Virus record (IMG/VR): IMGVR_UViG_2913123054_000004 | Strand: one strand, 5' to 3' | DNA length: 37,385 nucleotides | From: a virus | Taxonomy: Duplodnaviria; Heunggongvirae; Uroviricota; Caudoviricetes | Shown here: positions 2,089 to 36,451 of the stretch, piece by piece | How the letters are laid out: each line of letters opens with the position of its first letter | Numbering within the stretch: the first letter of the stretch is position 1 | Translations under genes and position numbers: made by a program | The notes under the pieces: generated by a model | Database searches by the model: none | What the model saw: only the letters and a program-made list of their open reading frames with translations | What the model was told of the DNA's origin: nothing

Positions 2089-3033
2089 TTATAATTCTTC
2101 TATCAGAATAAATTTGCATTTTGCAATAACATCAATATCTGAAATTTTACATTCAAATGATAAATCATTGTCTGAAATTTTTAATCTTCCTACAGGTATT
2201 CTAGTTAGGGTTCGAATGCTCACTTTTCCTTCTATTTTAACAATCCATTTACCATCTGTAATTTCATCGAATGATTGATTACATAGGTATGTTTTTTTTT
2301 CGGTGCTAACAATCAATGGTAATTGGATTGAGTCTGGTAGTAACGCTTTATCAAGCATATAGAAATTTGAATCAAATAGATTCCCGTCAGTAATTTTTTT
2401 GTGAGTAATAGCAATTACATCATTTCTTGCATCGTCAAACTTTGGGCCTTTACCAGTAGTTAGCCACATTAGTGAAGTACCCGTTTCGAGAGCGCACTTA
2501 ATTATCCAGTCTGAAGGAAAAACATCACGCATATATCTTGTGGCTAATGTGCTTTTTGAAATACCTAAGTGATCAGCTAAGGCTTGGCGAGTCTTATAAC
2601 CGTAAGCCCTAACAATTCGCTCTATTGCTTCCTTGCCACCCCGAGAATAATCAATGATGTTTTCATTGTCGAACTTTGGTTGTTTATAGTGAACGTCATG
2701 ATAAGAACCATCTTCGGAGTGTGTTTCAACATGCTGTTCTGGTGAAGGAGATGGCATTTGTTCGTCATCATCTGAACCAAATGCTAGCCATTTAATTGAT
2801 GCTCCTGTTTCCATTGAACAGATAACAATCCAATCTGCAGGAAATGTATCGCGGGCATATCTGTTAGCCATCGTGCTTTGGGAAATACCTAGATGGTTAC
2901 AGAATGCTTGGCGTGACTTGAAGCCATAAGCCATGAGTATCCGCTCGATTACTTTCTGACCACCACGATTTTGTATGACAACGGCTTTCATATCGTCATC
3001 AATATGGCGAAATGTGAATTTTTGAGTTGACAT
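2089..3033 (-). CDS. cI: 186 CI-type immunity repressor carrying two tandem copies of the N-terminal HTH domain
   Basis: 314 aa. Residues ~20-85 and ~125-195 are paralogous (IERILMAYGFKSRQAFCNHLGISQSTMANRY...CSMETGASIKWLAFG versus IERIVRAYGYKTRQALADHLGISKSTLATRY...CALETGTSLMWLTTG), separated by an acidic/Pro linker. C-terminal part resembles the 186 CI oligomerisation domain (WIVKIEGKVSIRTLTRIP...FEC). Confidence 0.8.
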   Translation of the reverse strand: MSTQKFTFRHIDDDMKAVVIQNRGGQKVIERILMAYGFKSRQAFCNHLGISQSTMANRYARDTFPADWIVICSMETGASIKWLAFGSDDDEQMPSPSPEQHVETHSEDGSYHDVHYKQPKFDNENIIDYSRGGKEAIERIVRAYGYKTRQALADHLGISKSTLATRYMRDVFPSDWIIKCALETGTSLMWLTTGKGPKFDDARNDVIAITHKKITDGNLFDSNFYMLDKALLPDSIQLPLIVSTEKKTYLCNQSFDEITDGKWIVKIEGKVSIRTLTRIPVGRLKISDNDLSFECKISDIDVIAKCKFILIEEL

Positions 3034-5176: not shown

Positions 5177-6030
5177 GCACCATCCTGAAATGGGCGGGAA
5201 ATAAAACCGCAATTATGTCCGAACTGAAAAAACACCTTCCTGCTGGCCCGCGACTGGTTGAACCTTTCGCGGGTTCCTGTGCTGTGATGATGGCGACGGA
5301 TTATCCAAGCTATCTGGTTGCGGATATTAATCCTGATTTAATCAACCTCTATAAAAAGGTTGCCGCTGATTGTGAATCGTTTATATCTCGCGCCAGAGTT
5401 TTATTTAAGGAAGCAAACAGGGAGGTGGCTTATTACAACATAAGGCAGGAGTTTAATTACTCAACTGAAATTACTGATTTCATGAAAGCGGTATATTTCC
5501 TGTATCTCAATCGTCACGGTTACCGTGGTTTATGTCGCTATAACAAGAGCGGGCATTTCAACATTCCCTACGGTAATTATAAAAATCCGTATTTCACTGA
5601 AAAAGAAATTCGTGCATTTGCAGTAAAAGCCCTGCGGGCAACGTTTATCTGCGCCAGCTTTGATGAAACGCTGGCGATGTTGAAGGCGGGGGATGTGGTG
5701 TATTGCGATCCGCCTTATGACGGCACGTTTTCCGGTTATCACACTGACGGCTTCACTGAAGATGACCAGTATCACCTGGCATCCGTTCTTGAACATCGAT
5801 CATCTGAAGGTCATCCGGTCATTGTTTCTAACAGTGACACATCCCTGATTCGTTCGCTGTATCGCAATTTCACTCACCACTACATCAAGGCAAAACGCAG
5901 CATCGGCGTGTCGGCTGGCGAGAGTAAATCTGCAACAGAAATCATTGCTGTTTCCGGGGCGCGCTGCTGGGTGGGATTTGATCCTTCGCGTGGCGTGGAT
6001 AGTTCTGCTGTGTACGAGGTGCGTGTATGA
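5173..6030 (+). CDS. dam: DNA adenine methyltransferase (Dam-like, D12 class N6-MTase)
   Basis: 285 aa from ATG 5173 ([11 protein letters not shown]). SAM-binding motif PFAGSCAV and catalytic DPPY (VYCDPPYDG). Start overlaps the upstream stop and the stop overlaps the A start (ATGA). Confidence 0.85.
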
Positions 6031-8441
6031 GTCATGACGATATGAGCAACTCTAGCGGCTTTAACGAGGTCGCTGTAGCATTTTCATGGAACGGCCCGAA
6101 AAAGGCCATTAACCCTTATCTGGAACCGGCGGAAGTTGCGCCGGAGTCTGCACTTTCAAACATGATCACTCTGTACGCTGCCGATAACGAGCAGGAACAG
6201 CAGCGCCGCGAGGCACTGAGTGATCAGGTCTGGGAACGTTATTTCTTTAATGAATCCCGTGATCCTGTCCAGCGCGAAATGGAGCAGGATAAGCTCATTA
6301 GCCGGGCAAAGCTGGCGCATGAACAGCAGCGTTTTAACCCGGACATGGTCATTCTGGCAGATGTCAGCGCCCAGCCTTCTCATATCAGCAAGCCGCTGAT
6401 GCAACGTATCGAATACTTCAGCAGCCTGGGCAGGCCAAAGGCTTATTCCCGCTATTTGCGTGAGACGATTAAGCCATGTCTGGAGCGACTGGATTGTGTA
6501 CGTGACAGTCAGCTATCTGTTTCTTTCCGTTTTATGGCAAGCCATCAAGGGCTGGAGGGTCTGCTGATCCTGCCTGAAATGAGCCAGGATCAGGTGAAAC
6601 GCCTGTCCACCCTGGTAGCAGCGCATATGAGCATGTGTCTTGAGGCCGCTTGTGGTGATTTGTACGCCACCGATGACGTTAAGCCAGAAGAAATCCGCAA
6701 GACATGGGAAAAGGTGGCTGCGGAAACCCTGCGTCTGGATGTTATCCCGCCTGCGTTTGAGAAACTTCGTCGGAAAAGAAACCGCCGCAAACCCGTGCCC
6801 TATGAACTCATACCGGGTTCGCTGGCGCGTATGTTGTGCGCCGACTGGTGGTATCGAAAATTGTGGAGGATGCGTTGCGAATGGCGGGAAGAGCAGTTGC
6901 GTGCTGTCTGTCTGGTCAGCAAAAAAGCATCTCCCTATGTCAGCTATGAAGCCGTGATGCATAAACGTGAGCAGCGCCGCAAGTCGCTGGAGTTTTTCCG
7001 TTCTCATGAACTGGTGAACGAAGACGGAGACACGCTGGATATGGAAGATGTGGTAAACGCCAGCAGCAGCAACCCGGCACATCGCCGCAATGAGATGATG
7101 GCCTGCGTTAAAGGTCTGGAGCTTATCGCGGAAATGCGTGGTGACTGCGCCGTTTTCTACACTATCACCTGTCCGTCACGTTTCCATTCCACGCTCAACA
7201 ACGGCAGACCCAACCCGACCTGGACAAACGCGACGGTAAGGCAAAGCAGCGATTATCTGGTCGGCATGTTTGCTGCATTTCGTAAGGCAATGCATAAAAC
7301 CGGGCTGCGCTGGTATGGCGTGCGGGTGGCTGAGCCGCACCATGACGGTACTGTGCACTGGCATCTTATGTGCTTCATGCGTAAAAAAGACCGCCGCGCC
7401 ATCACTGCATTACTGCGTAAGTTTGCCATCCGTGAAGACCGCGAGGAGCTGGGTAATAACACGGGACCACGCTTTAAGTCTGAGCTGATTAACCCGCGCA
7501 AAGGAACGCCGACAAGCTACATCGCGAAATATATCAGTAAAAATATTGACGGACGTGGTCTGGCCGGCGAGATCAGCAAGGAAACGGGTAAATCCCTGCG
7601 TGATAACGCCGAATACGTGAATGCCTGGGCGTCTCTGCATCGTGTTCAGCAGTTCCGCTTCTTTGGTATTCCGGGACGTCAGGCTTACCGTGAACTTCGC
7701 TTGCTGGCTGGTCAGGCGGCAAGGCAACAGGGTGACAAAAAAGCAGGTGCGCCGGTACTGGATGACCCGCGTCTTGATGCCATCCTGGCTGCTGCTGATG
7801 CTGGTTGTTTTGCCACCTACATCATGAAGCAGGGCGGCGTACTGGTTCCCCGCAAATATCACCTTATCAGAACCGCTTATGAAATTAACGAAGAGCCGAC
7901 CGCCTATGGCGATCACGGTATTCGTATTTATGGCATCTGGTCACCCATTTCAGAGGGCAAGATCTGCACTCATGCAGTGAAGTGGAAAATGGTTCGTAAG
8001 GCCGTTGACGTTCAGGAGGCGGTAGCCGACCAGGGCGCTTGCGCCCCTTGGACTCGTGGCAATAACTGTCCCCTTGCTGAAAATTTGAACCAGCAGGAGA
8101 AAGATAAATCAGCTGATGGGGACACCAGAACGGTCATTACCCGCATGGATGACAAGGAGTTGCACGATTACCTGCACAATATGAGCAAAAAAGAGCGCCG
8201 GGAACTGGCAGCAAGGTTACGCCTGGTGAAACCGAAACGGCGTAAAGACTATAAACAGCGAATTACAGACCATCAGCGACAGCAGCTCGTCTATGAACTG
8301 AAGTCCAGAGGATTTGATGGCAGCGAGAAAGAAGTCGATTTACTTCTTCGCGGCGGCAGTATTCCGTCAGGAGCAGGCCTGCGTATCTTCTATCGGGACC
8401 AGCGTCTGCAGGAGGATGATAAATGGCGGAACCTGTATTAA
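6027..8441 (+). CDS. A: Replication initiation protein A (rolling-circle endonuclease)
   Basis: 804 aa with HUH-type motif (TVHWHLMCF) and tyrosine-containing YIAKYISKN. Size and position as P2/186 gene A. Confidence 0.9.
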
Positions 8442-8596: not shown

Positions 8597-8788
8597 AAGA
8601 TGCAGGATTATTTTTTAGAGTCGTTGAAACTCCAGCGAATTGATTTTTTTCTTAAGCTTGTAGTGGCCAGTGAATGTAGTGATCAGGAAAAAGAGCTTGC
8701 GCTGCTTTGGATTTCAGAACTGACGGATGAACTCATGGCAAAAATCAGAACCCACGAATATAACCGCTCAATGGATGTTGTTAACTGA
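8597..8788 (+). CDS. Hypothetical small protein, first gene of the putative SOS-controlled module (possible Tum N-terminal-like part)
   Basis: 63-aa ORF from ATG 8597 (MQDYFLESLKLQ...); track alternative start at 8552. AT-rich. Immediately upstream of the DinI-like ORF. Confidence 0.4.
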   Translation, partial: KMQDYFLESLKLQRIDFFLKLVVASECSDQEKELALLWISELTDELMAKIRTHEYNRSMDVVN

Positions 8789-8798
8789 GGGGCAATTT

Positions 8799-9032
8799 AT
8801 GCGCATTGAAATAATGATCGATAAAGAGCAAAAAATTAGCCAGTCTACCCTGGACGCCCTTGAATCCGAGCTTTACCGCAATCTGCGCCCCCTGTATCCC
8901 AAAACGGTAATTCGCATCCGCAAAGGTAGCTCTAACGGTGTGGAACTGACCGGACTGAAACTGGACGAAGAAAAAAAACAAGTGATGAAAATTATGCAGA
9001 AGGTGTGGGAAGACGACAGCTGGCTGCATTAA
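8799..9032 (+). CDS. DinI-family protein (DNA-damage-inducible protein I-like; Tum C-terminal-like)
   Basis: 77 aa, MRIEIMIDKEQKISQSTLDALESELYRNL...MQKVWEDDSWLH, aligns with E. coli DinI (MRIEVTIAK...ETWESADDWF). RBS GAGGGG upstream. Confidence 0.75.
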   Translation: MRIEIMIDKEQKISQSTLDALESELYRNLRPLYPKTVIRIRKGSSNGVELTGLKLDEEKKQVMKIMQKVWEDDSWLH

Positions 9033-9161
9033 GAAACGTTGCCCCCAGGAGGATTCATTCTGATGGGGGCTGGTTTGGGCAACGAGTGAAACGAGGCGTA
9101 AGGTGGGCGGACATTTGCCCCAAATTGATAACACTCGTTAAGCTACTTTCCTGATGGATGC

Positions 9162-9497
9162 TTAAGAACGGTCATTCTGTTTAGTTTTCATGAGTGAATC
9201 CCGAATCTTCGCAAGGTTTGAATTTTCGGGGACTGAATCCATGTACGGATCGCGCTCAAACACTAATTGCTCAGATTCAACGAAAGCCCGCCACTCTACT
9301 GGGTCTAGCTCAAACTCCATCGCAGACATATCACTTTCATCTTCCCCCTCGATCCAGTGGACTAAATAAAACAATTCATCATCAGGAGAGTCATCATCGT
9401 CATCAACAATATCAATGTCGGTTACAGTGATGCGTAGGGTGGGATCGATTTTTGAGACATAAATCCCTAACTGTGGCATAGCGGGAATATTGTTCAT
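9162..9497 (-). CDS. Hypothetical highly acidic protein
   Basis: 111-aa ORF with RBS AAAGGA; strongly D/E-rich (DIDIVDDDDDSPDDE, EGEDESD). Confidence 0.55.
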   Translation of the reverse strand: MNNIPAMPQLGIYVSKIDPTLRITVTDIDIVDDDDDSPDDELFYLVHWIEGEDESDMSAMEFELDPVEWRAFVESEQLVFERDPYMDSVPENSNLAKIRDSLMKTKQNDRS

Positions 9498-9876
9498 GAA
9501 AATTCCTTTATTGTTGTTTGCTATTTGAATAAAAATACGCCAAACAGAGTGCTTGCTGTGAATATGGCAAGAATCGTTGTAAGTATCCCGCTAAGATGCC
9601 CCATTCTTTTTTGGAGGTCCTCTTGCATATGGATTATGTTGCCCGAAAACTAACTTCCGTTCCTCGCTCACAGCGGACTTTCATCTTTGTAAACCTGTAT
9701 GTTTCGTTTTTCAAGCGGTCATTCAGATACGGATTTTCACGACCCTCGGCAGTGCATGACTATGCCGCATGAATCCGCATGATCGTTTGGGGATCGTTTT
9801 TGCTGAGGCCCGCCAGAGCTGGCGTGCTTTTGCTTATGTCATGCAGGTGCATGAAAACCACTGCATAAAGCGGGCA

Positions 9877-9895
9877 GGCGTGGCGGGGATACGAG
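9877..9895. other. cos-like site (cohesive-end sequence of P2/186 type)
   Basis: GGCGTGGCGGGGA matches the first 13 nt of the 19-nt cohesive ends as I remember them (P2 GGCGAGGCGGGGAAAGCAC, 186 very similar). Lies in the 550-bp non-coding gap between gene A side and gene Q side. Confidence 0.45.
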
Positions 9896-9937
9896 CGCGC
9901 GTTAAGTCATATAAGAGTTATATATTGATTTGATTGC

Positions 9938-9966
9938 TGGACATACATACAGTGTCGCTCTATCAT
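9938..9966 (+). promoter_or_regulatory. Candidate sigma70 promoter for the kinase/HIRAN operon (TGGACA-N17-TATCAT)
   Basis: Hexamers with 17-bp spacing, ~80 bp upstream of the 10048 start codon. Confidence 0.3.
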
Positions 9967-10047
9967 CTAATAAATCTTAGGGTATTTGACAATGTTTGGA
10001 TAAAATGGAACCTAACTTATTCATAATCCGCTAAACAGGGATGTCAG

Positions 10048-10962
10048 ATGCCATACCAATTGGTAGAGCTTAGCCCCGTAGCTAACGATCTTGAACAGTT
10101 AGGAACCAAAGAGAAGTTTTGGTTCTATTTCTCCGATGACACTGTAAATTTGCAGTTGTTTAAGTACTCTAGGCCAGGTACTGGCGAGCATTGGTCTGAA
10201 AAGTGTGCTGCTGAGTTATGTCATTTGCTTAACATTCCACATGCTAGCTATGATTTGGCGCGATACAATGGTCGATTCGGTGTGGTGACTCAGAATATCA
10301 TTCCATCTGGTTTCCGGATGGTAATGGGAAATGAAGTGCTTCACAGTTCGACATTCGATTATCCTGGGCCTTTACAAGCCGGGGAAAAGCCGGTAAGGGT
10401 CAGAGAACACACTGTCACAAGGGTCTTGGGTTGTTTAGATAGGGAATCTATCAAGCCTCCTCCGAGTGTATATGATCTAACCGGGCTAAATGCAGCAGAT
10501 GTATTTTGTGGATATTTGATGCTCGATGCACTTGTGAGTAATCAAGATCGCCACCATGAAAATTGGGCAATCATGCTTAACAATGAAACTGGTGAGCAGT
10601 TTTTGTGTCCAACATACGATCATGCCGCTAGTTTAGGAAGGGAGATGTTAGATGATGAGCGTAACGAACGGCTTAATACTAAAGATAAAAATCGACAAAT
10701 CCCATGTTTTGTAAGAAAAGCTCGCTCTGAGCTATTCAAAGCAAAAACTGATAAAAAGCCCTTGCTGACTGTTGAAGCATTTCAACATGCAGTTGAAGGG
10801 AGAGTTGCCGCTCGCGACCATTGGTTAGGTAAGTTGAGCGTTTTAACAGAAGATTCCATTACAGATGTGTTTAACCAAGTGCCTTCATCGTGTATATCCG
10901 ACAGTGCACGTAGATTTGCAACGTTAATGGTAATGGAAAATCGCAGAAGGTTACTAGAATGA
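10048..10962 (+). CDS. HipA-family serine/threonine kinase, short form (core kinase domain only)
   Basis: 304 aa. P-loop-like LGTKEKFWF near the N-terminus, catalytic-loop motif DALVSNQDRHHENWAIM, metal-binding LCPTYDHAAS; same order as in HipA/HipT. RBS AGGGA upstream. Confidence 0.8.
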   Translation: MPYQLVELSPVANDLEQLGTKEKFWFYFSDDTVNLQLFKYSRPGTGEHWSEKCAAELCHLLNIPHASYDLARYNGRFGVVTQNIIPSGFRMVMGNEVLHSSTFDYPGPLQAGEKPVRVREHTVTRVLGCLDRESIKPPPSVYDLTGLNAADVFCGYLMLDALVSNQDRHHENWAIMLNNETGEQFLCPTYDHAASLGREMLDDERNERLNTKDKNRQIPCFVRKARSELFKAKTDKKPLLTVEAFQHAVEGRVAARDHWLGKLSVLTEDSITDVFNQVPSSCISDSARRFATLMVMENRRRLLE

Positions 10963-11699
10963 CTAATACAAACTCCGTTTACGTCGCATGGCAGGCACCA
11001 GATACCAGAGACTGGCATGTTGTTGGTAACTTGCAAGAGCGCAAATCGGGGTATGTTTTCAGGTATACCAAAGGTGCTCTTAAATCTTCTAAATTTACAA
11101 AGTTTAGCGGCATGAGTGATGTTCGTGAAACTTATGTATCGGAAGAATTGTTTCCTCTTTTTAAAAATCGCCTTTTATCACCGAGACGTCCAGAGTATCC
11201 GAGTTTCATTAAATGGCTTGGATTTGAAGAAGATAAGGTAAATCCTATCGATATTCTTGCTCGCTCGGGAGGCTTACGAAGCACTGATCAGCTGCAGATT
11301 TTCAAAAAAATTGATTTTGATTCTGATGGTAACTTTGAGCATTTTTTCTTCTTACATGGACTTGGTTACTTGAATAGCTTAGCTAATGCTCGTGTATCTG
11401 AATTGAAACCGGGGCAAATTTTGCGTCTTTGCTTGGATCTTCAAAATGAATACGATGGGGATGCTGTTGTCGTTCGTGCAGATAAACCAGCTGAAATCGT
11501 TGGTTACTGCCCTAGGTATTTAAGTAATGACATCAAGAAGATGTTATTGGATGATCCAAAATCAATCACTTTAACGGTCGAAAAGATTAGTGATGATGCT
11601 CCTCATAACTATCGGTTATTATGTAAATTATCAGGGGTACTAAGCCAAGCCTGTCAATCGACGCTGATTCCTCAAGATGAGTTTGAACCTATTGAGTAA
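10959..11699 (+). CDS. HipS-like (HipA N-terminal subdomain-like) protein with C-terminal HIRAN domain; putative partner/antitoxin of the kinase
   Basis: 246 aa. Start overlaps kinase stop (ATGA). N-terminal half shows HipA N-subdomain-like patterns (EELFPLFKNRLLSPRRP, PIDILARSGGLRSTD). C-terminal ~90 aa has HIRAN hallmarks (LQNEYDGDAVVV...EIVGYCPRYL). Confidence 0.75.
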   Translation: MTNTNSVYVAWQAPDTRDWHVVGNLQERKSGYVFRYTKGALKSSKFTKFSGMSDVRETYVSEELFPLFKNRLLSPRRPEYPSFIKWLGFEEDKVNPIDILARSGGLRSTDQLQIFKKIDFDSDGNFEHFFFLHGLGYLNSLANARVSELKPGQILRLCLDLQNEYDGDAVVVRADKPAEIVGYCPRYLSNDIKKMLLDDPKSITLTVEKISDDAPHNYRLLCKLSGVLSQACQSTLIPQDEFEPIE

Positions 11700-11705
11700 A
11701 TGAAG

Positions 11706-11729
11706 AAAAGCCACCAAACGGTGGCTTTT
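11706..11729. terminator. Bidirectional intrinsic terminator hairpin between the HIRAN gene and portal gene Q
   Basis: Perfect stem AAAAGCCACC / GGTGGCTTTT with 4-nt loop AAAC, T-run on the plus strand and A-run on the other side. Confidence 0.6.
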
Positions 11730-11733
11730 CTTA

Positions 11734-12771
11734 TTATGGGGCTATATCTAGCGAGTAGGTATCAAACCGTATCGCCTCCTTGCCAAGCCAATCATTCATC
11801 TCCTGTAATCGCTTTTGTAGTGGCATTAGCTCATTTCGGACGAATACACGGCTTGCCTTCTCCACATCCCCAAACCCCCCGACATTATTAGGCATAATCC
11901 CCATCATCTGAGGCGGTACGCGGTGCGCAGCCATCATGTCATCACGGCTGACGTTCTTGATGTTCAGAAATTCATCCTTCGCTGCGACTTCTGACAATGG
12001 GATAATCTGAAGTCCGTCTTTTTTACCATTAGGCGAGTACATAAACAGATTGCGGAAGTTACCCGGACCTTTGGCGCTTTTCATTGCGTTGCGGAGGTTG
12101 TTCACATCCTCCTGGTTCTGCGCAGCATCGGTCATGTACATGATGAAGCCTGCATGACTGCCGTTAATGTAATACCTGCGGCGGAACAGCGTGGCGGACT
12201 CGTTGAGCAGAGCTGACGGAATGGCAGAAAGATAACCGGGCAGGCCGTAGATCTCCTGGTTAATGTCCGGTTCCATCAGATGAAAAATGCTGCCTTTCGT
12301 GAACTGATACGGCTGGGTTGTCATACCGTATTGCACAAACCAGTAGGTATCCAGGTCTAACCCACGTCGGGTGTATTTCGCCAGGGCAGGTTCAAGGGCG
12401 ATAACTTCACCGAAGCGGTTCGTACGTTTCTCCAGGTAGGCGTTACCAAATACCAGATAGTCTTGCACAAAACGTGAAAAAGCCTGCTGGCTGAGTAGCG
12501 GGTGAGGGATGTAGGTACTGGTCAGAATGTTGCATTTCACCGCAATTGGTGAACTGTGATGCACGGCAGCGCGGAAGGTGCGCGCCAGTCCGTCAAAGCT
12601 TACTGGCGGTTCATACCAGCGATCTGTCTGTACGCATTCCACATAGTCCAGCAGTTCACGGCGGTCCAGAACAGGAACGGGATCGCCAAAGCTGAATGTT
12701 TCGGCTGAAGTCTGGCTTTTATGCTGAATCTGGGTCGTCGACGCAGTGCGGCTCTTCTTACTCTTTCCCAT
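11734..12771 (-). CDS. Q: Portal protein (P2 gpQ-like)
   Basis: 345 aa; size, position and divergent Q-P / O-N arrangement as in P2. Confidence 0.9.
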   Translation of the reverse strand: MGKSKKSRTASTTQIQHKSQTSAETFSFGDPVPVLDRRELLDYVECVQTDRWYEPPVSFDGLARTFRAAVHHSSPIAVKCNILTSTYIPHPLLSQQAFSRFVQDYLVFGNAYLEKRTNRFGEVIALEPALAKYTRRGLDLDTYWFVQYGMTTQPYQFTKGSIFHLMEPDINQEIYGLPGYLSAIPSALLNESATLFRRRYYINGSHAGFIMYMTDAAQNQEDVNNLRNAMKSAKGPGNFRNLFMYSPNGKKDGLQIIPLSEVAAKDEFLNIKNVSRDDMMAAHRVPPQMMGIMPNNVGGFGDVEKASRVFVRNELMPLQKRLQEMNDWLGKEAIRFDTYSLDIAP

Positions 12772-14537
12772 TAAAAAATCTCCACAATATTGCTGGTATT
12801 GGCGGACTCGCCCTGCAGCGGTTCGTTAAAGAGTGCGTGCATTGTTGCCCAAGCCAGATCGGCATGGCTGGCTTCTTCGCTGCGGCTGGCTTCATAAGTC
12901 GGGCGGTTGCCGCTGGCGGTGGTGGCGCGGCGGATTGCCATGAATGACTGCGCAATGTCGGTGTGCCCGGCGTCAAACTCCAGACGGCGGTGGCTGATAA
13001 TGTCGTAGGCCTTGAGTACCAGGGCGTTTTTAACGTTGGGGTTGTAGACAAACTCCCGGACGGCAGGAAAAAACGCTTTTACGTTCTCGTAAACCCCGTG
13101 ACCGACGCCGGTTGAGTCGATACCGATGTATGTCACGTTGTACTGTTCAGTCAGTTTTTTGATGGCGTCAGCCTGGGCGCGGAAGTCCATCCCGCGCCAC
13201 TGGTGACGCTCAAGAATGCGGAACTTACCGCCTGGCACGGCTGGCGGAGCCACCACCACGCATCCGGCGCTGTCGCCGTTCTGCGTACCTTTTGCCGGGT
13301 CATAACCGATCCACACTTCGCGCCAGCCAAACGGGCGCAGGGCCAGTGCATGAAAGTCAGTCCAGACTTCCCAGCTGTCCACCATGCACGCCTGCAGCTC
13401 GCTGAGCGGGAACACGGACGCGAGATCGTCCACGAACTCACACATCAGCAGGTTCTGGTATTCGTCCGGGCTGTACTCCATGCGTAGCTGGTCTAGGTCG
13501 AACAGGTTACAGCCGCCGCGCACCGCATCTTCCACGGTGACTATCTGGCGGTATTGCCCGTCTGCGCACAGCAGGCCGGGGGCCAGATTGCTGTGGGACA
13601 GGTCAATGTCCACCTTGTCGGCTTTGTTGCGTCCACGGTTGAACAGCGCACCGGACCAGAACGGATAAGCACTGTGTGTCAGGCTGGAAGGCGTGGAAAA
13701 ATAGGTTTGTCGCCATTTTTTGTGAATAGCCATACCGGAAGCCACTTTGCGCAGCTCCTGGAATTTCGGTATCCAGAAATATTCATCCAGATACAGGTTG
13801 CCGTGATAACTCTGGGCAGTGCGGGCATTGGTGCCGAGGAAGTAAAGCGTGGCCCCGTTAGGAAGCACCATCGGATCGCCTTTCAGCTCCACCTCCACTT
13901 CTTTGGCGAAGTCGATGATGTACTGCTTAAAGACGTGGGCCTGTGCCTTGCTGGCGGAAAGAAAAATCTGGTTACGTCCGGTAAGCAGAGCGTCAATCAG
14001 GGCTTCACGGGCAAAGTAAAAGGTCGCGCCGATCTGGCGTGACTTCAGCAGGTTGCGGATGCGGTTGGTTTTTCCGGCTTCCCACCAGTGGCGCTGGTAG
14101 TTGAACATGGAGGAATGGAAGATTTCTTCCAGCTTCTCAATCTGTTCATCGGTGAAAACATTCTTTTCCGGCTGACGGCGCGGGCCTTTGTTGCGGTTGG
14201 CGACGTTTGGGTTTAAGTCGGCTTCGTTGCCGCCATTGTTAAACTTGCCGATCCGCGCGTGGCGCTCCGACTGGCGCGCCAGCAGGTCAATCTCTTTGAA
14301 ATCTTTCCCTTCTTTGTGCTCCTTCATGATGAGCTGACAGTAGCGTGCGGCGGTGGTGAGCTGCATTTGATCCAGCGGCCCATAGTCACCCCACTTGTCG
14401 CGTTTTTTCCAGCTGTGAACGGTTGCAACTTTCTCGCCCAGCATTTCAGCAATGCGGGCTACGCGGTATCCCTGAAAGTACAGCAGCATGGCCTGCCGAC
14501 GGGGATCGAGATCTGCGGGTGTCAGTGTGGTGTTCAT
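12771..14537 (-). CDS. P: Terminase large (ATPase) subunit (P2 gpP-like)
   Basis: 588 aa upstream of Q on the same strand. Confidence 0.9.
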   Translation of the reverse strand: MNTTLTPADLDPRRQAMLLYFQGYRVARIAEMLGEKVATVHSWKKRDKWGDYGPLDQMQLTTAARYCQLIMKEHKEGKDFKEIDLLARQSERHARIGKFNNGGNEADLNPNVANRNKGPRRQPEKNVFTDEQIEKLEEIFHSSMFNYQRHWWEAGKTNRIRNLLKSRQIGATFYFAREALIDALLTGRNQIFLSASKAQAHVFKQYIIDFAKEVEVELKGDPMVLPNGATLYFLGTNARTAQSYHGNLYLDEYFWIPKFQELRKVASGMAIHKKWRQTYFSTPSSLTHSAYPFWSGALFNRGRNKADKVDIDLSHSNLAPGLLCADGQYRQIVTVEDAVRGGCNLFDLDQLRMEYSPDEYQNLLMCEFVDDLASVFPLSELQACMVDSWEVWTDFHALALRPFGWREVWIGYDPAKGTQNGDSAGCVVVAPPAVPGGKFRILERHQWRGMDFRAQADAIKKLTEQYNVTYIGIDSTGVGHGVYENVKAFFPAVREFVYNPNVKNALVLKAYDIISHRRLEFDAGHTDIAQSFMAIRRATTASGNRPTYEASRSEEASHADLAWATMHALFNEPLQGESANTSNIVEIF

Positions 14538-14679: not shown

Positions 14680-15513
14680 ATGACAGTGAAAGCAAAGCGT
14701 TTTCGCATCGGGGTGGAAGGTGCCACCACCGACGGACGCGAAATCCAGCGTGAATGGCTGGAACAGATGGCAGCCAGCTACAACCCGGCGGTGTATACCG
14801 CGCTGATTAACCTTGAGCACATCAAGTCTTATCTGCCGGACAGCACCTTTAACCGCTACGGCAAGGTGACGGCGCTGTTTGCTGAAGAAATCACGGAAGG
14901 TCCGTTGGCAGGCAAGATGGCGCTGTATGCCGACGTTGAGCCAACGGAATCCCTGGTGGAACTGGTGAAAAAAGGCCAGAAATTATTCACCTCTATGGAA
15001 GTCAGCCCGAAGTTTGCTGATACGGGCAAAGCCTACCTGGTCGGCCTGGCTGCCACTGATGACCCTGCCAGTCTGGGCACTGAAATGCTGACATTCAGCG
15101 CCAGTGCAGCCCATAACCCACTGGCAAACCGCAAGCAGAATCCTGCCAATCTCTTTACCGCTGCAGAGGAAACGGTGATCGAACTGGAAGAAATCCAGGA
15201 CGACAAACCGTCCCTGTTTGCCCGTGTCACGGCGCTGTTTACCAAAAAAGAGCAGTCCGATGACGCCCGGTTCTCTGATGTGCATAAGGCCGTGGAGCTG
15301 GTCGCCACTGAGCAGCAGAACCTGAGCGCACGCACCGAAAAATCCCTGTCTGAGCAGGAAGAACGCCTGTCTGAGCTGGAGACTGCCCTGCAGGCGCAGC
15401 AAACCGCCTTTAACGAACTGGTGGACAAGCTGAGTCATGAAGACAGCCGCCAGGACTACCGCCAGCGTGCAACAGGCGGTAACGCCCCCGCTGACACTCT
15501 GACCAATTGCTGA
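14680..15513 (+). CDS. O: Capsid scaffolding protein (P2 gpO-like)
   Basis: 277 aa; position and Ala/Glu-rich coiled-coil C-terminus typical of gpO. Confidence 0.85.
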   Translation: MTVKAKRFRIGVEGATTDGREIQREWLEQMAASYNPAVYTALINLEHIKSYLPDSTFNRYGKVTALFAEEITEGPLAGKMALYADVEPTESLVELVKKGQKLFTSMEVSPKFADTGKAYLVGLAATDDPASLGTEMLTFSASAAHNPLANRKQNPANLFTAAEETVIELEEIQDDKPSLFARVTALFTKKEQSDDARFSDVHKAVELVATEQQNLSARTEKSLSEQEERLSELETALQAQQTAFNELVDKLSHEDSRQDYRQRATGGNAPADTLTNC

Positions 15514-15529
15514 TGGAGCACAAAACCCG

Positions 15530-16588
15530 ATGAAGAAGAATACCCGCTTTGCTTTTAACGCTTACCTGCAGCAGCTGGCGTGTCTGAACGGTGTGGCAGT
15601 TGAAGAACTGTCCAGCAAGTTCACCGTGGAACCGTCTGTGCAGCAGACGCTGGAAGACCAGATCCAGCAGTCCGCCGCTTTCCTGACGCTGATTAACGTC
15701 ACGCCAGTGACTGAGCAGTCCGGTCAGCTGCTGGGGCTGGGTGTTGGCAGCACCATTGCCGGAACCACTGACACCACCGCGAAAGAGCGTGAACCTGTCG
15801 ATCCGACGCTGATGGTCGATGTGGAATATAAATGCGAGCAGACCAACTTTGACACGGTGCTGACCTACGCGAAGCTGGACCTGTGGGCGAAGTTTCAGGA
15901 TTTCCAGGTGCGTATCCGTGACGCCATCGTGAAACGTCAGGCACTGGACCGCATCATGATCGGCTTTAACGGCGTGAAGCGTGCGAAAACCTCCAACCGT
16001 AGCGAAAACCCGCTGTTGCAGGATGTGAATAAAGGCTGGCTGCAGAAAATCCGTGAGGATGCACCGGATCACGTCATGGGCAGCACCACCACGGGCGGTG
16101 AAACCACACCGGGCGCGGTGAAAGTCGGCAAAGGTGGCGAATATGCCAACCTGGACGCCGTAGTGATGGATGCCGTTAATGAGCTTATCGACGTGGTCTA
16201 CCAGGACGATGACGATCTGGTGGTGATTTGCGGTCGTGAACTGCTGTCTGACAAGTATTTCCCGCTGGTCAACAAAGAGCAGGAAAACAGTGAAAAACTG
16301 GCTGCCGATATGATCATCAGTCAGAAACGCATGGGTGGCCTGCAGGCCGTGCGTGCGCCGTTCTTCCCGCCGAATGCGCTGCTGATCACCCGTCTGGATA
16401 ACCTGTCCATCTACTGGCAGGAAGACACCCGCCGCCGTTCAGTTATCGACAACCCGAAACGTGACCGGATTGAAAATTTTGAATCCGTTAACGAAGCCTA
16501 TGTGGTTGAGGACTACCGCTGCGCTGCACTGGTGGAAAACATCCAGATTGGCGACTTCAGCGCCGCCGCAGCAGAAGCCGGAGCGTAA
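15530..16588 (+). CDS. N: Major capsid protein (P2 gpN-like)
   Basis: 352 aa; strong match to remembered gpN (TRFAFNAYLQQ, KFTVEPSVQQTL, LAADMIISQKR). Confidence 0.9.
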   Translation: MKKNTRFAFNAYLQQLACLNGVAVEELSSKFTVEPSVQQTLEDQIQQSAAFLTLINVTPVTEQSGQLLGLGVGSTIAGTTDTTAKEREPVDPTLMVDVEYKCEQTNFDTVLTYAKLDLWAKFQDFQVRIRDAIVKRQALDRIMIGFNGVKRAKTSNRSENPLLQDVNKGWLQKIREDAPDHVMGSTTTGGETTPGAVKVGKGGEYANLDAVVMDAVNELIDVVYQDDDDLVVICGRELLSDKYFPLVNKEQENSEKLAADMIISQKRMGGLQAVRAPFFPPNALLITRLDNLSIYWQEDTRRRSVIDNPKRDRIENFESVNEAYVVEDYRCAALVENIQIGDFSAAAAEAGA

Positions 16589-16591
16589 CCC

Positions 16592-17242
16592 ATGAGCCTG
16601 AGTCCCGCACGGCAGCATCGCCTGCGCGTTCAGGCTGAACAGGCCGCCCGCGAGGGCGGCAGCGTTCGCCACGCGTCGGGCTATGACCTGATGCTGCTGC
16701 AACTGGCGGAAGACCGCCGCCGTCTCAAGGGCGTTCAGTCCACGGTGAAAAAAGCGGAAATAAAGGTGGAGCTGCTGCCGAAATATGCCGCCTGGGCGGA
16801 GGGCGTCCTGGCTGCCGGAGGCGCTCAACAGGATGACGTGCTGATGTACGTGATGCTGTGGCGCATTGATGCCGGAGATTATGCCGGGGCGCTGGAGATC
16901 GGGCGTCATGCCCTGCGTCATGGCTGGGTGATGCCGCTGGGTAACCGCAACGTGCAGACCGTGCTGGCAGAGGAAATGGCAGATGCAGCGCAGAGCGCAA
17001 TGCTTGCCGCCACCGGCTTTGATGCCGATCTGTTGCTGCAGACGCTGGAGCTGACAGACGGTCTGGATATGCCGGACCAGTCACGGGCGCGTCTGCATAA
17101 AGCGATTGGCGCTGTCCTGAGTGAAAGCAATCCGGCTTCCGCCCTTAATCATCTCAACCATGCGTTACAGCTCGATCCCCGCTGTGGCGTGAAAAAAGAC
17201 AAACAGCAGCTGGAGCGCAGACTGCGCAATGACAGCCGCTGA
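16592..17242 (+). CDS. M: Terminase small/endonuclease subunit (P2 gpM-like)
   Basis: 216 aa directly after N. Confidence 0.85.
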   Translation: MSLSPARQHRLRVQAEQAAREGGSVRHASGYDLMLLQLAEDRRRLKGVQSTVKKAEIKVELLPKYAAWAEGVLAAGGAQQDDVLMYVMLWRIDAGDYAGALEIGRHALRHGWVMPLGNRNVQTVLAEEMADAAQSAMLAATGFDADLLLQTLELTDGLDMPDQSRARLHKAIGAVLSESNPASALNHLNHALQLDPRCGVKKDKQQLERRLRNDSR

Positions 17243-34530: not shown

Positions 34531-34610
34531 CGCTGCCGCCATTTTGTCGCCATCGTTAAAAAACAGTGCTTCTAACATCATGATTTTAAACGGCATAAAT
34601 TTCAGGCAAC

Positions 34611-34653
34611 AAAAAACCCATCAACCTTGAACCAAAATGGCGGGGTTGATGGG
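34611..34653 (-). terminator. Hairpin plus T-run on the minus strand downstream of ybjL (probable ybjL terminator, near the prophage right junction)
   Basis: Minus strand reads CCCATCAACC, 17-nt loop, GGTTGATGGG, TTTTTT. Confidence 0.4.
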
Positions 34654-34765
34654 CTCCACAAAATGGGGACATCAAAGAAAAGCAGTGGCACTAATTAAGA
34701 CTGATGCCCCAAAGAAAAGTTCGCCGATTGTACAAAAAAATTTCATTTTCAGGGCAACTTCAGTT

Positions 34766-36451
34766 TTATCCGAGTCCTGGCCATACCATGACAATGATTG
34801 TCCCGGCCAGCGTTAGCAGTACGTTAGCTATTGCATAAGTGCCCGCATAACCTAAGGCTGGGATGTTACTGCGTGCGGTGTCGCTGATGATCTCCATTGC
34901 CGGAGCACAAGTACGCGCACCCATCATCGCGCCGAACAGGAGTGCGCGGTTCATACGCAGTACATAAGCGCCGAACAGGAAGCAGATAACCACCGGTACC
35001 AGACTGACAATCAATCCGGCAATTAACATCTGACCACCGATCGCGCCCAGGCCGTTATTAATACCGCTACCGGCGCTTAAACCAACGCCTGCCATAAACA
35101 CCATCAAGCCGAACTCTTTCACCATGCTTAACGCCCCCTGCGGAATGTAACCGAAGGTCGGGTGGTTAGCGCGCATAAAGCCCAACATAATGCCGGCGAA
35201 TAACAAGCCAGCAGCGTTACCCATGCCAAAGCTAAATGTACTGAACTGGAAGGTAATCATCCCGATCATCAGGCCAATAACAAAGAACGCGCAGAATGCC
35301 AGCAGGTCTGTGACCTGGCTGTGAATCGAGATAAAGCCGATGCGGTCAGCAATGGTTTTCACGCGACGGGCATCGCCGCTCACCTGTAAAACATCACCTT
35401 TATTAAGCACAACGTTGTCATCAATTGGCATCTCAATCTGGCTGCGGATGACGCGGTTAAGGAAGCAACCGTGATCGGTCAACTTTAGTTGTGCCAGACG
35501 TTTACCTACCGCGTTATGGTTTTTGACGACGACCTCTTCAGTGACGATACGCATGTCGAGAAGGTCACGATCAAAAACTTCTTTACCGTTACGGAAGCTG
35601 GGATCGAGGCGGGCGTGGGCGTCTGGATATCCCACTAACGCTATCTCATCGCCCATTTGCAGTACGGCGTCGCCATCTGGATTTGCCAGAATCCCGTTAC
35701 GACGAATACGTTCAATGTAGCAACCAGTTTGACGATAAATACCCAATTCACGCAGATTTTTGCCGTCGGTCCAGGCCACCAGCTCCGGGCCGACACGGTA
35801 GGCGCGGATCACCGGCAAATAAACTTTGCGGCTGGCATCGGTGTCCAGGCCACGTTCGCGAGCGATTTGTTGGGCGCTGGTCTGTAAATCCTGATGTTGC
35901 AACTTCGGTAAATAACGTGCACCGACAATTAAACTCACCAGGCCAATTAAATAGGTTAACGCATACCCAAGGCTTAGATTATCCAGTGCCGTGGTGAGCT
36001 GTCCGCTTTCCATACCGGAATGGCGTAATGTGTCGCCAGCACCGACCAGAACCGGTGTCGATGTCATGGAGCCAGCCAACATACCGGCCGTCAGACCGAT
36101 ATCCCAGCCAAACAGCTTACCCAACCCTAAGGCGATCGCCAGCGCACTGCTAACCATCACCAGAGCTAACATTAGGTAATTTTTCCCATCGCGGAAAAAA
36201 ATGGAAAAAAAGTTGGGTCCGGCTTCGACCCCGACGCAGAAAATAAACAACATAAAGCCAAGATTAAGCGCGTCGGTGTTAATGCTGAAATGTTGTTGCC
36301 CTAATAGTAACGATACGACTAAAACGCCAATGGAATTACCCAGTTGGATTGAACCAAGTCGTAATTTTCCTAGACATAGTCCAAGCGCAAGGACTACAAA
36401 TAATAACAGAATGTAATTCCCATTTAACAATTCGGCGACGTTTATATTCAC
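34766..36451 (-). CDS. ybjL: Putative transport protein YbjL (host gene)
   Basis: 561 aa, N-terminus [33 protein letters not shown] matches remembered E. coli YbjL; higher GC, host-like codon usage. Confidence 0.9.

Follow-up and report, generated by a model that had tools for sequence, protein, structure and literature searches.

A probable P2/186-family cos site between two cargo cassettes of a Fels-2-type prophage

The sequence between about positions 9751 and 9902 of the 37,385-nt viral stretch analyzed here (IMG/VR record IMGVR_UViG_2913123054_000004, hereafter the window) is very probably the cos site of a P2/186-family prophage (Peduoviridae, Fels-2/SEN8-type). The 550-bp region around it (9498 to 10047), which a first-pass annotation of the sequence had treated as one long noncoding unit, is composed of three modules: the leader of a left-hand cassette, a cos block of about 150 bp, and the promoter region of a right-hand cassette. 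The left end of the virion genome is predicted at position 9877, so that the earlier suggestion that the virion genome begins here is retained as a prediction, drawn from homology with P2 and 186, whose ends have been mapped. The cos site is an ordinary and already known DNA-packaging site of the P2 family within a published hotspot architecture, and our results leave the current understanding of this family unchanged. Their main value lies in annotation, through the predicted virion ends and the division of a long intergenic region into three modules.

The genomic setting is that of a P2/186-like (Peduoviridae) prophage, with an integrase (1 to 1017, - strand), a CI-type repressor (2089 to 3033, - strand, Phage_CI_repr and Phage_CI_C), gpA (6027 to 8441, by Pfam), and a DinI/Tum-like gene (8727 to 9032) on one side of the site, and on the other a gpQ-like portal gene (11734 to 12771, - strand, Pfam Phage_portal) and a gpP-like large terminase gene (12771 to 14537, - strand, Pfam Terminase_5/6N/6C; PF06056, PF03237, and PF17289 at 3e-27 to 3e-65). 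Scaffold, capsid, and gpM-type small terminase genes follow at 14680 to 17242, the last of them at 16592 to 17242 on the + strand (PF05944 Phage_term_smal, 2e-40). Both terminase subunits are intact and encoded by the same element as the cos site, which occupies the canonical P2/186 position between the DinI-like gene and the antiparallel portal and large terminase genes. An Rfam scan at gathering thresholds gave no match in the cos region, and its sole hit was the RybB sRNA (34608 to 34686, - strand, 106 bits). Together with a YbjL-like Asp-Al_Ex/TrkA_C permease (34766 to 36451, - strand), RybB marks host chromosome, and the prophage therefore ends just before RybB. Two open reading frames near the integrase deserve mention in their own right. 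The 314-aa repressor frame (2089 to 3033) contains two separate Phage_CI_repr helix-turn-helix matches in addition to Phage_CI_C; the CI protein of 186 is much shorter, at about 190 aa, and the long frame may reflect either a tandem N-terminal domain or a start called too far upstream. A 325-aa frame between integrase and repressor (1099 to 2076, - strand), for which Pfam and PADLOC gave no significant match, is maybe another position for accessory genes.

Circular cos regions of P2, 186, P4, and SEN8 were rebuilt by joining the ends of their records, and the same site was located in Fels-2, SopEPhi, 813R9, and MLG42 for a nick-anchored comparison. The window aligned to 186, P2, P4, and the Fels-2-type phages with zero gaps, revealing a shared layout of GCATG, a palindrome, TCATGCA.GTGCAT.AAAACC.......AAG.GGGC., the 19-mer, and YGCGCGC. 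Local alignment of the whole 550-bp region against the circularized cos regions yielded z-scores of 26.2 (186), 12.4 (P2), and 15.2 (P4) relative to 500 dinucleotide shuffles. The first-pass annotation had proposed a cos-like site here, to be given up should formal alignment to known cos sites prove nonsignificant; since the alignments to both P2 and 186 are significant, that proposal stands. When the 186 cos junction was scanned against both strands of the whole window, the one strong match fell at this position (score 74; next best, 33). The flanks also match, in register with the nick, the pattern of the roughly 55-bp P2-P4 homology (TGCAT.AAAACC...AAG.GGGC, then the 19-mer, then YGCGCGC), the passage of PMC9594776 that cites Ziermann & Calendar (1990) giving 55 bp as conserved between P2 and P4.

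By homology to known cos sites, the 5' cohesive end is predicted to be the 19-nt sequence GGCGTGGCGGGGATACGAG (9877 to 9895, + strand). It opens with GGCGTGGCGGGGA, which the first-pass annotation had placed, exactly, at 9877 to 9889. All 19 positions are identical in the "putative cos site" of SEN8 and in Fels-2, SopEPhi, 813R9, and the Yersinia phage MLG42. Experimentally mapped cohesive ends exist for 186, P2, and P4, and to these the match is 15/19, 14/19, and 14/19, respectively. The SEN8 feature is annotated at record positions 1 to 19, the GenBank record of that phage starting at the equivalent of 9877 and ending at the equivalent of 9876; a search for virion-end data from any phage with the exact 19-mer found none, the label on the SEN8 feature being "putative." Positions 9877 to 9895 satisfy the G+C-rich, 19-nt form of the family's cohesive ends, GGCG(A/T)GGCGGGGAAAGCA(C/T), but overhang positions 14 to 19 read TACGAG, unlike the AAGCAT of 186, and the 19-nt length is therefore extrapolated. 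Terminases of the P2/186 type leave 19-nt 5' overhangs by nicking the two strands at opposite ends of the 19-mer, the top strand on its 5' side and the bottom strand on its 3' side, and the 186 record states the same two cut positions. By extension from P2 and 186, the nicks in this prophage would fall at 9876/9877 (top) and 9895/9896 (bottom).

Conservation delimits a cos module at 9751 to 9902 (+ strand), in which about 126 bp to the right-end side of the nick precede the 19-nt cohesive end and a final CGCGCG(T). Across 29 nonredundant enterobacterial copies, per-column information climbs sharply at about 9751 and collapses past 9902, although columns 9877 to 9901 were fixed by the search pattern and are not independent evidence; blastn matches in phages are confined to 9745 to 9910. 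The most conserved part outside the 19-mer is a nick-proximal block, TCATGCAGGTGCATGAAAACCACTGCATAAAGCGGGCA (9839 to 9876, + strand), which aligns to P2, P4, and 186 as TGCATTAAAACC...AAG.GGGC and falls inside the 55-bp P2-P4 homology cited in that passage of PMC9594776. Its TCATGCAGGTGCATGAAAACC...AAAGCGGGCA portion is among the most conserved parts of the block in the 29 copies. Conservation extends beyond the cohesive end only through CGCGCGT (9896 to 9902, + strand; YGCGCGC in P2, P4, 186, and the Fels-2 type), after which comes the right-hand cargo. A candidate conserved hairpin just before the nick (CTGC...GCAG) was dropped, as the Fels-2-type relatives, judged by eye, have CTAC.

The exact 25-mer formed by the 19-mer plus CGCGCG occurred at 44 loci in a collection of one representative genome per species, mostly in Enterobacterales, with a few in Chitinimonas and one in Pasteurella testudinis. 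The Chitinimonas copies (L014 to L017, L020, L038, L041, and L049) lie on several contigs per genome, and both there and in the Pasteurellaceae genome of P. testudinis (L030) the flanks have diverged. That the core is common to Betaproteobacteria and Pasteurellaceae despite such divergence argues for a very strong constraint on the nicking site across classes. One further locus (L051), on a contig of a metagenome-assembled genome labeled Bacillota bacterium (JAEYLX010000057.1), has the cos core and encodes DinI and portal proteins 97% identical to those of the window, and is most likely an enterobacterial prophage mis-binned into that assembly.

Short repeats occupy much of the block upstream of the nick. 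Four copies of (C/G)GCATGA had been reported at 9752, 9767, 9776, and 9849; the cluster is real and its GCATGA core correct, but the copies lie at 9754, 9767, 9777, and 9849 (+ strand), 0 to 2 nt from those positions, and are preceded by T, C, C, and T, making the motif (C/T)GCATGA. With a fifth copy at 9839 to 9844 (- strand), five GCATGA fall within about 100 bp, compared with 30 in the whole 37-kb window, and the largest cluster per 110 bp in 200 dinucleotide shuffles of the window was three. Only this 6-mer clusters significantly: a both-strand statistic for GCATG/TGCAT was uninformative (mean shuffle maximum, 4.7 to 4.8; observed, 4 to 5), because these self-overlapping near-palindromes clump in shuffled sequence as well. 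The real evidence is conservation across phages. Three direct YGCATGA repeats (9753 to 9759, 9766 to 9772, and 9776 to 9782, + strand), marked by both clustering and conservation, have counterparts in TGCAT(G/T) triplets equally distant from the nick in P2, 186, P4, and the Fels-2-type phages, and we regard them as candidate recognition repeats for the small terminase. A reading as a replication origin or iterons was rejected, since the spacing of the repeats from the nick is constant and the P4 cos has them too.

Adjacent to the repeats is a pair of GATC (Dam) sites 11 bp apart (9781 to 9784 and 9792 to 9795). The tandem described at 9781 to 9801 does contain two Dam sites, its units being GATCGTTTGG (9781 to 9790) and GATCGTTTTTG (9792 to 9802). 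Both tetramers are kept in 24 of the 29 nonredundant enterobacterial copies, around a 7-bp spacer that varies (GTTTGAG or CAAAAAG), and the pair is absent from P2, 186, and P4. The upstream region of the P. testudinis copy is different and has at least five GATC sites. Both elements put forward earlier as terminase-binding candidates, these two Dam sites and the GCATGA repeats, lie inside the conserved block and are kept across relatives, consistent with a putative role in terminase binding. A more specific idea, that two GATC sites one helical turn apart are a functional, lineage-specific addition making terminase binding or cleavage Dam-dependent, strikes us as doubtful. The pac site of phage P1 is the comparison case for dependence on Dam methylation, and if such a reading were true, packaging would be coupled to the state of DNA replication or methylation. 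This lineage-specific conserved pair is the sole mildly open point at this cos.

The palindrome GCCCGCCAG-AG-CTGGCGTGC followed by TTTTGC (9808 to 9833, + strand; core CGCCAG-NN-CTGGCG at 9811 to 9824) bears on how much of the block serves packaging. With its T-run, which is present in the Fels-2 type, it scores as a terminator-like element on the + strand, and one could argue that the repeats and hairpin are mainly transcription signals of the neighboring cassettes, with the cos itself limited to about 45 bp around the nick. The hairpin would then terminate the tum/DinI transcript before it reaches cos, and the remainder would be promoters or operators of the leftward 111-aa operon; consistent with this, TTTTGC completes an intrinsic terminator by score, and the leftward cassette needs a promoter within 9629 to 9750 or beyond. 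However, no promoter-like site was found inside 9751 to 9902, and the repeats, GATC pair, and palindrome hold their register with the nick despite entirely different cargo. P4, a satellite with nothing but cos in common with its helpers (PMC9122126), also has TGCAT repeats and a palindrome lacking the T-run. We consider this transcriptional account distinctly unlikely. The palindrome is degenerate in P2 but is kept without the T-run in 186, P4 (CCGCGCCATTCCCGGCGCGG), and the Chitinimonas copies, and for that reason it is read as probably a part of the packaging signal rather than primarily a terminator.

That the block is a cos site does not by itself settle whose site it is or whether it is still used. 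The window departs from the consensus at 9790 (G), 9825 (T for G, in the palindrome), 9862 (G), and 9902 (T for C), and the departures at the conserved columns 9825 and 9902 might suggest a relic in a cryptic prophage, no longer cut or used. Every departure is nevertheless found in other natural copies (9825 in L019; 9902 in L024, L029, and L053), strong Pfam matches accompany full-length open reading frames for both terminase subunits, portal, scaffold, and capsid, and nothing interrupts the element between the integrase and the host flank at RybB. Among phages with the same core, the Yersinia phage MLG42 was isolated as a virion and SEN8 forms plaques (PMC5261728). Since the departures occur naturally and same-core phages are plaque-forming or virion-isolated, decay of the site is very unlikely. 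P4-like satellites carry the same cos core next to a hotspot of their own (PMC9122126), and several of the 44 genomic matches had neither portal nor gpA within the DNA examined, so a satellite or hitch-hiking insert might be proposed as the owner of the site. Against that stand the canonical P2/186 order, with the site between gpA/DinI and portal/terminase, the retained tQ-like terminator, and the absence from the window of satellite genes and of any other cos-like site; this attribution is almost certainly wrong. An active packaging site belonging to the prophage itself accordingly remains the preferred reading.

On either side of cos lies cargo with its own leader. The claim that 9498 to 10047 is gene-free applies to open reading frames of at least 60 aa, of which there are none, but a 35-aa frame is present at 9521 to 9628 (- strand). 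The left-hand leader (9498 to 9750, - strand) precedes a 111-aa gene (9162 to 9497, - strand), annotated as DUF8087 in relatives, whose product had no Pfam or PADLOC match. This leader is about 90% identical in E. coli loci that have the same 111-aa gene with different right-hand cargo (for example, a retron St85-type pair) and is not conserved in other cos loci. The 35-aa frame lies directly upstream of the 111-aa gene, across a 23-bp gap, and RefSeq leaves it unannotated in relatives. Its 27-aa hydrophobic core, MGHLSGILTTILAIFTASTLFGVFLFK (9521 to 9604), is retained in E. coli relatives with conservative changes, as MGHLSG(I/V)LTTIL(A/S)IFT(A/V)(S/N)TLFGVFLFK, and the window carries an 8-codon N-terminal extension that a stop codon interrupts in those relatives. 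The frame could encode a small membrane peptide partnered with the 111-aa protein.

The right-hand leader (9903 to 10047, + strand) is A+T-rich, contains a promoter-like TGGACA-17-TATCAT (9938 to 9966), and travels at 98 to 99% identity in E. coli genomes with a cassette of two genes, a HipA_C-like kinase (10048 to 10962, + strand) and a HIRAN-domain protein (10959 to 11699, + strand). Both were identified with Pfam, and the pair matches the PADLOC candidate (not validated) defense system PDC-M03 A/B (E = 2e-122 and 7e-93). The cassette occupies the same place between cos and portal in many E. coli genomes (98 to 99% nucleotide identity) and also in Enterobacteriaceae bacterium UBA5654 (L022; 88 to 89% amino acid identity). 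Past it, between the HIRAN and portal stop codons, a hairpin GAAAAGCCACC-AAAC-GGTGGCTTTTC (11705 to 11727) is positionally equivalent to the tQ (P2) and tW (186) terminators; it separates convergent genes, is bordered by an A/T run on each side, and resembles a bidirectional terminator.

These cassettes are exchanged independently. E. coli genomes with the kinase/HIRAN right side carry SIR2 and an ATPase to the left of cos instead, so the right-hand cassette is seen with other left cargo just as the left-hand cassette is seen with other right cargo. Between gpA and gpQ, cargo differs among Fels-2, 813R9, SopEPhi, SEN8, and the E. coli loci. Among the 44 loci, DinI and cos are 206 to 3515 bp apart (844 bp in the window) and cos and the portal 173 to 2991 bp apart (1838 bp in the window), the minimal values equaling those of P2 and 186. 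No complete E. coli genome or phage record covered at least 80% of 9033 to 11733, so the exact pairing of left and right cargo was not found. The cos-adjacent gpA-gpQ variable hotspot has been described by Rousset et al. 2022 (PMC9122126), and cos is the fixed point of this hotspot, with cargo exchanged independently on each side.

We propose that the prophage's own terminase, composed of a gpM-like small and a gpP-like large subunit, would recognize the conserved block of about 125 bp on the right-end side of the nick, including the three YGCATGA repeats, the GATC pair, the CGCCAG-NN-CTGGCG palindrome, and TCATGCAGGTGCATGAAAACC...GGGCA, and would then nick the two strands in a staggered way, the top one ahead of G9877 and the bottom one past position 9895, so that packaged DNA would carry 19-nt 5' cohesive ends. 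The block is thus a candidate gpM recognition region, and any assignment of individual sub-elements to individual proteins is tentative. P2 terminase is reported to prefer circular monomers. On such a preference, PMC6893505 makes a statement in general terms. The direction of packaging bears on the earlier suggestion that the kinase/HIRAN operon enters the host ahead of the rest of the genome. Were the recognition block to act as cosB does in lambda, the end carrying it would be packaged first, and under last-in-first-out ejection the end with kinase/HIRAN and portal would then enter first. Strict last-in-first-out ejection has been questioned for lambda (PMC10287942), and on the order of packaging or ejection in P2 and 186 the literature passages retrieved offered only citations of Chattoraj & Inman (1974), unaccompanied by the result.

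For annotation, separating the three modules allows the 111-aa gene and the HipA-like kinase/HIRAN pair to be handled as hotspot cargo, each exchangeable independently of the other. The sharp junctions at about 9751 and after 9902 also provide a practical rule for delimiting hotspot cargo and a minimal cos of about 150 bp in Fels-2-type phages.

Among known systems, a parallel exists in lambda, whose cos (cosQ-cosN-cosB) receives staggered terminase nicks at a defined site flanked by an asymmetric recognition array. The working principle is the same, but there is no sequence homology to the cos described here, the lambda overhang is 12 nt rather than 19 nt, and, with respect to the structural genes, lambda has its extended recognition block on the other side. 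Within the P2 family, the cos sites of 186, P2, and P4 share the layout of TGCAT repeats, palindrome (186 and P4), TGCAT.AAAACC...AAG.GGGC, 19-mer, and YGCGCGC, and the first 13 nt of the 186 19-mer are identical to those of the window, whereas overhang positions 14 to 19 across these three read AAGCA(T/C) in place of TACGAG. In P2 and 186 the portal gene begins about 170 to 180 bp past cos, compared with 1.8 kb of intervening cargo in the window, and the P2 cargo (old, tin) lies solely on the side of cos away from the portal, in contrast to the cargo on both sides found here. The hotspot of Rousset et al. (PMC9122126) has the same location and behavior, with variable cassettes near cos that include some defense systems, and beyond that description only the exact junctions and the occupation of both sides are new. 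The cos of the Fels-2-type phages (Salmonella phage SEN8, Fels-2, SopEPhi, E. coli phage 813R9, and Yersinia phage vB_YpM_MLG42) has the same 19-mer plus CGCGCG, matches at 53 to 55 of the 60 positions before the nick, and contains the same GCATG repeats, GATC pair, and palindrome. It likewise lies between a DinI/Tum-like gene and a portal gene, flanked by cargo on one side or both, and differs from the window only in the flanking cargo and in point differences at 9790, 9825, 9862, and 9902.
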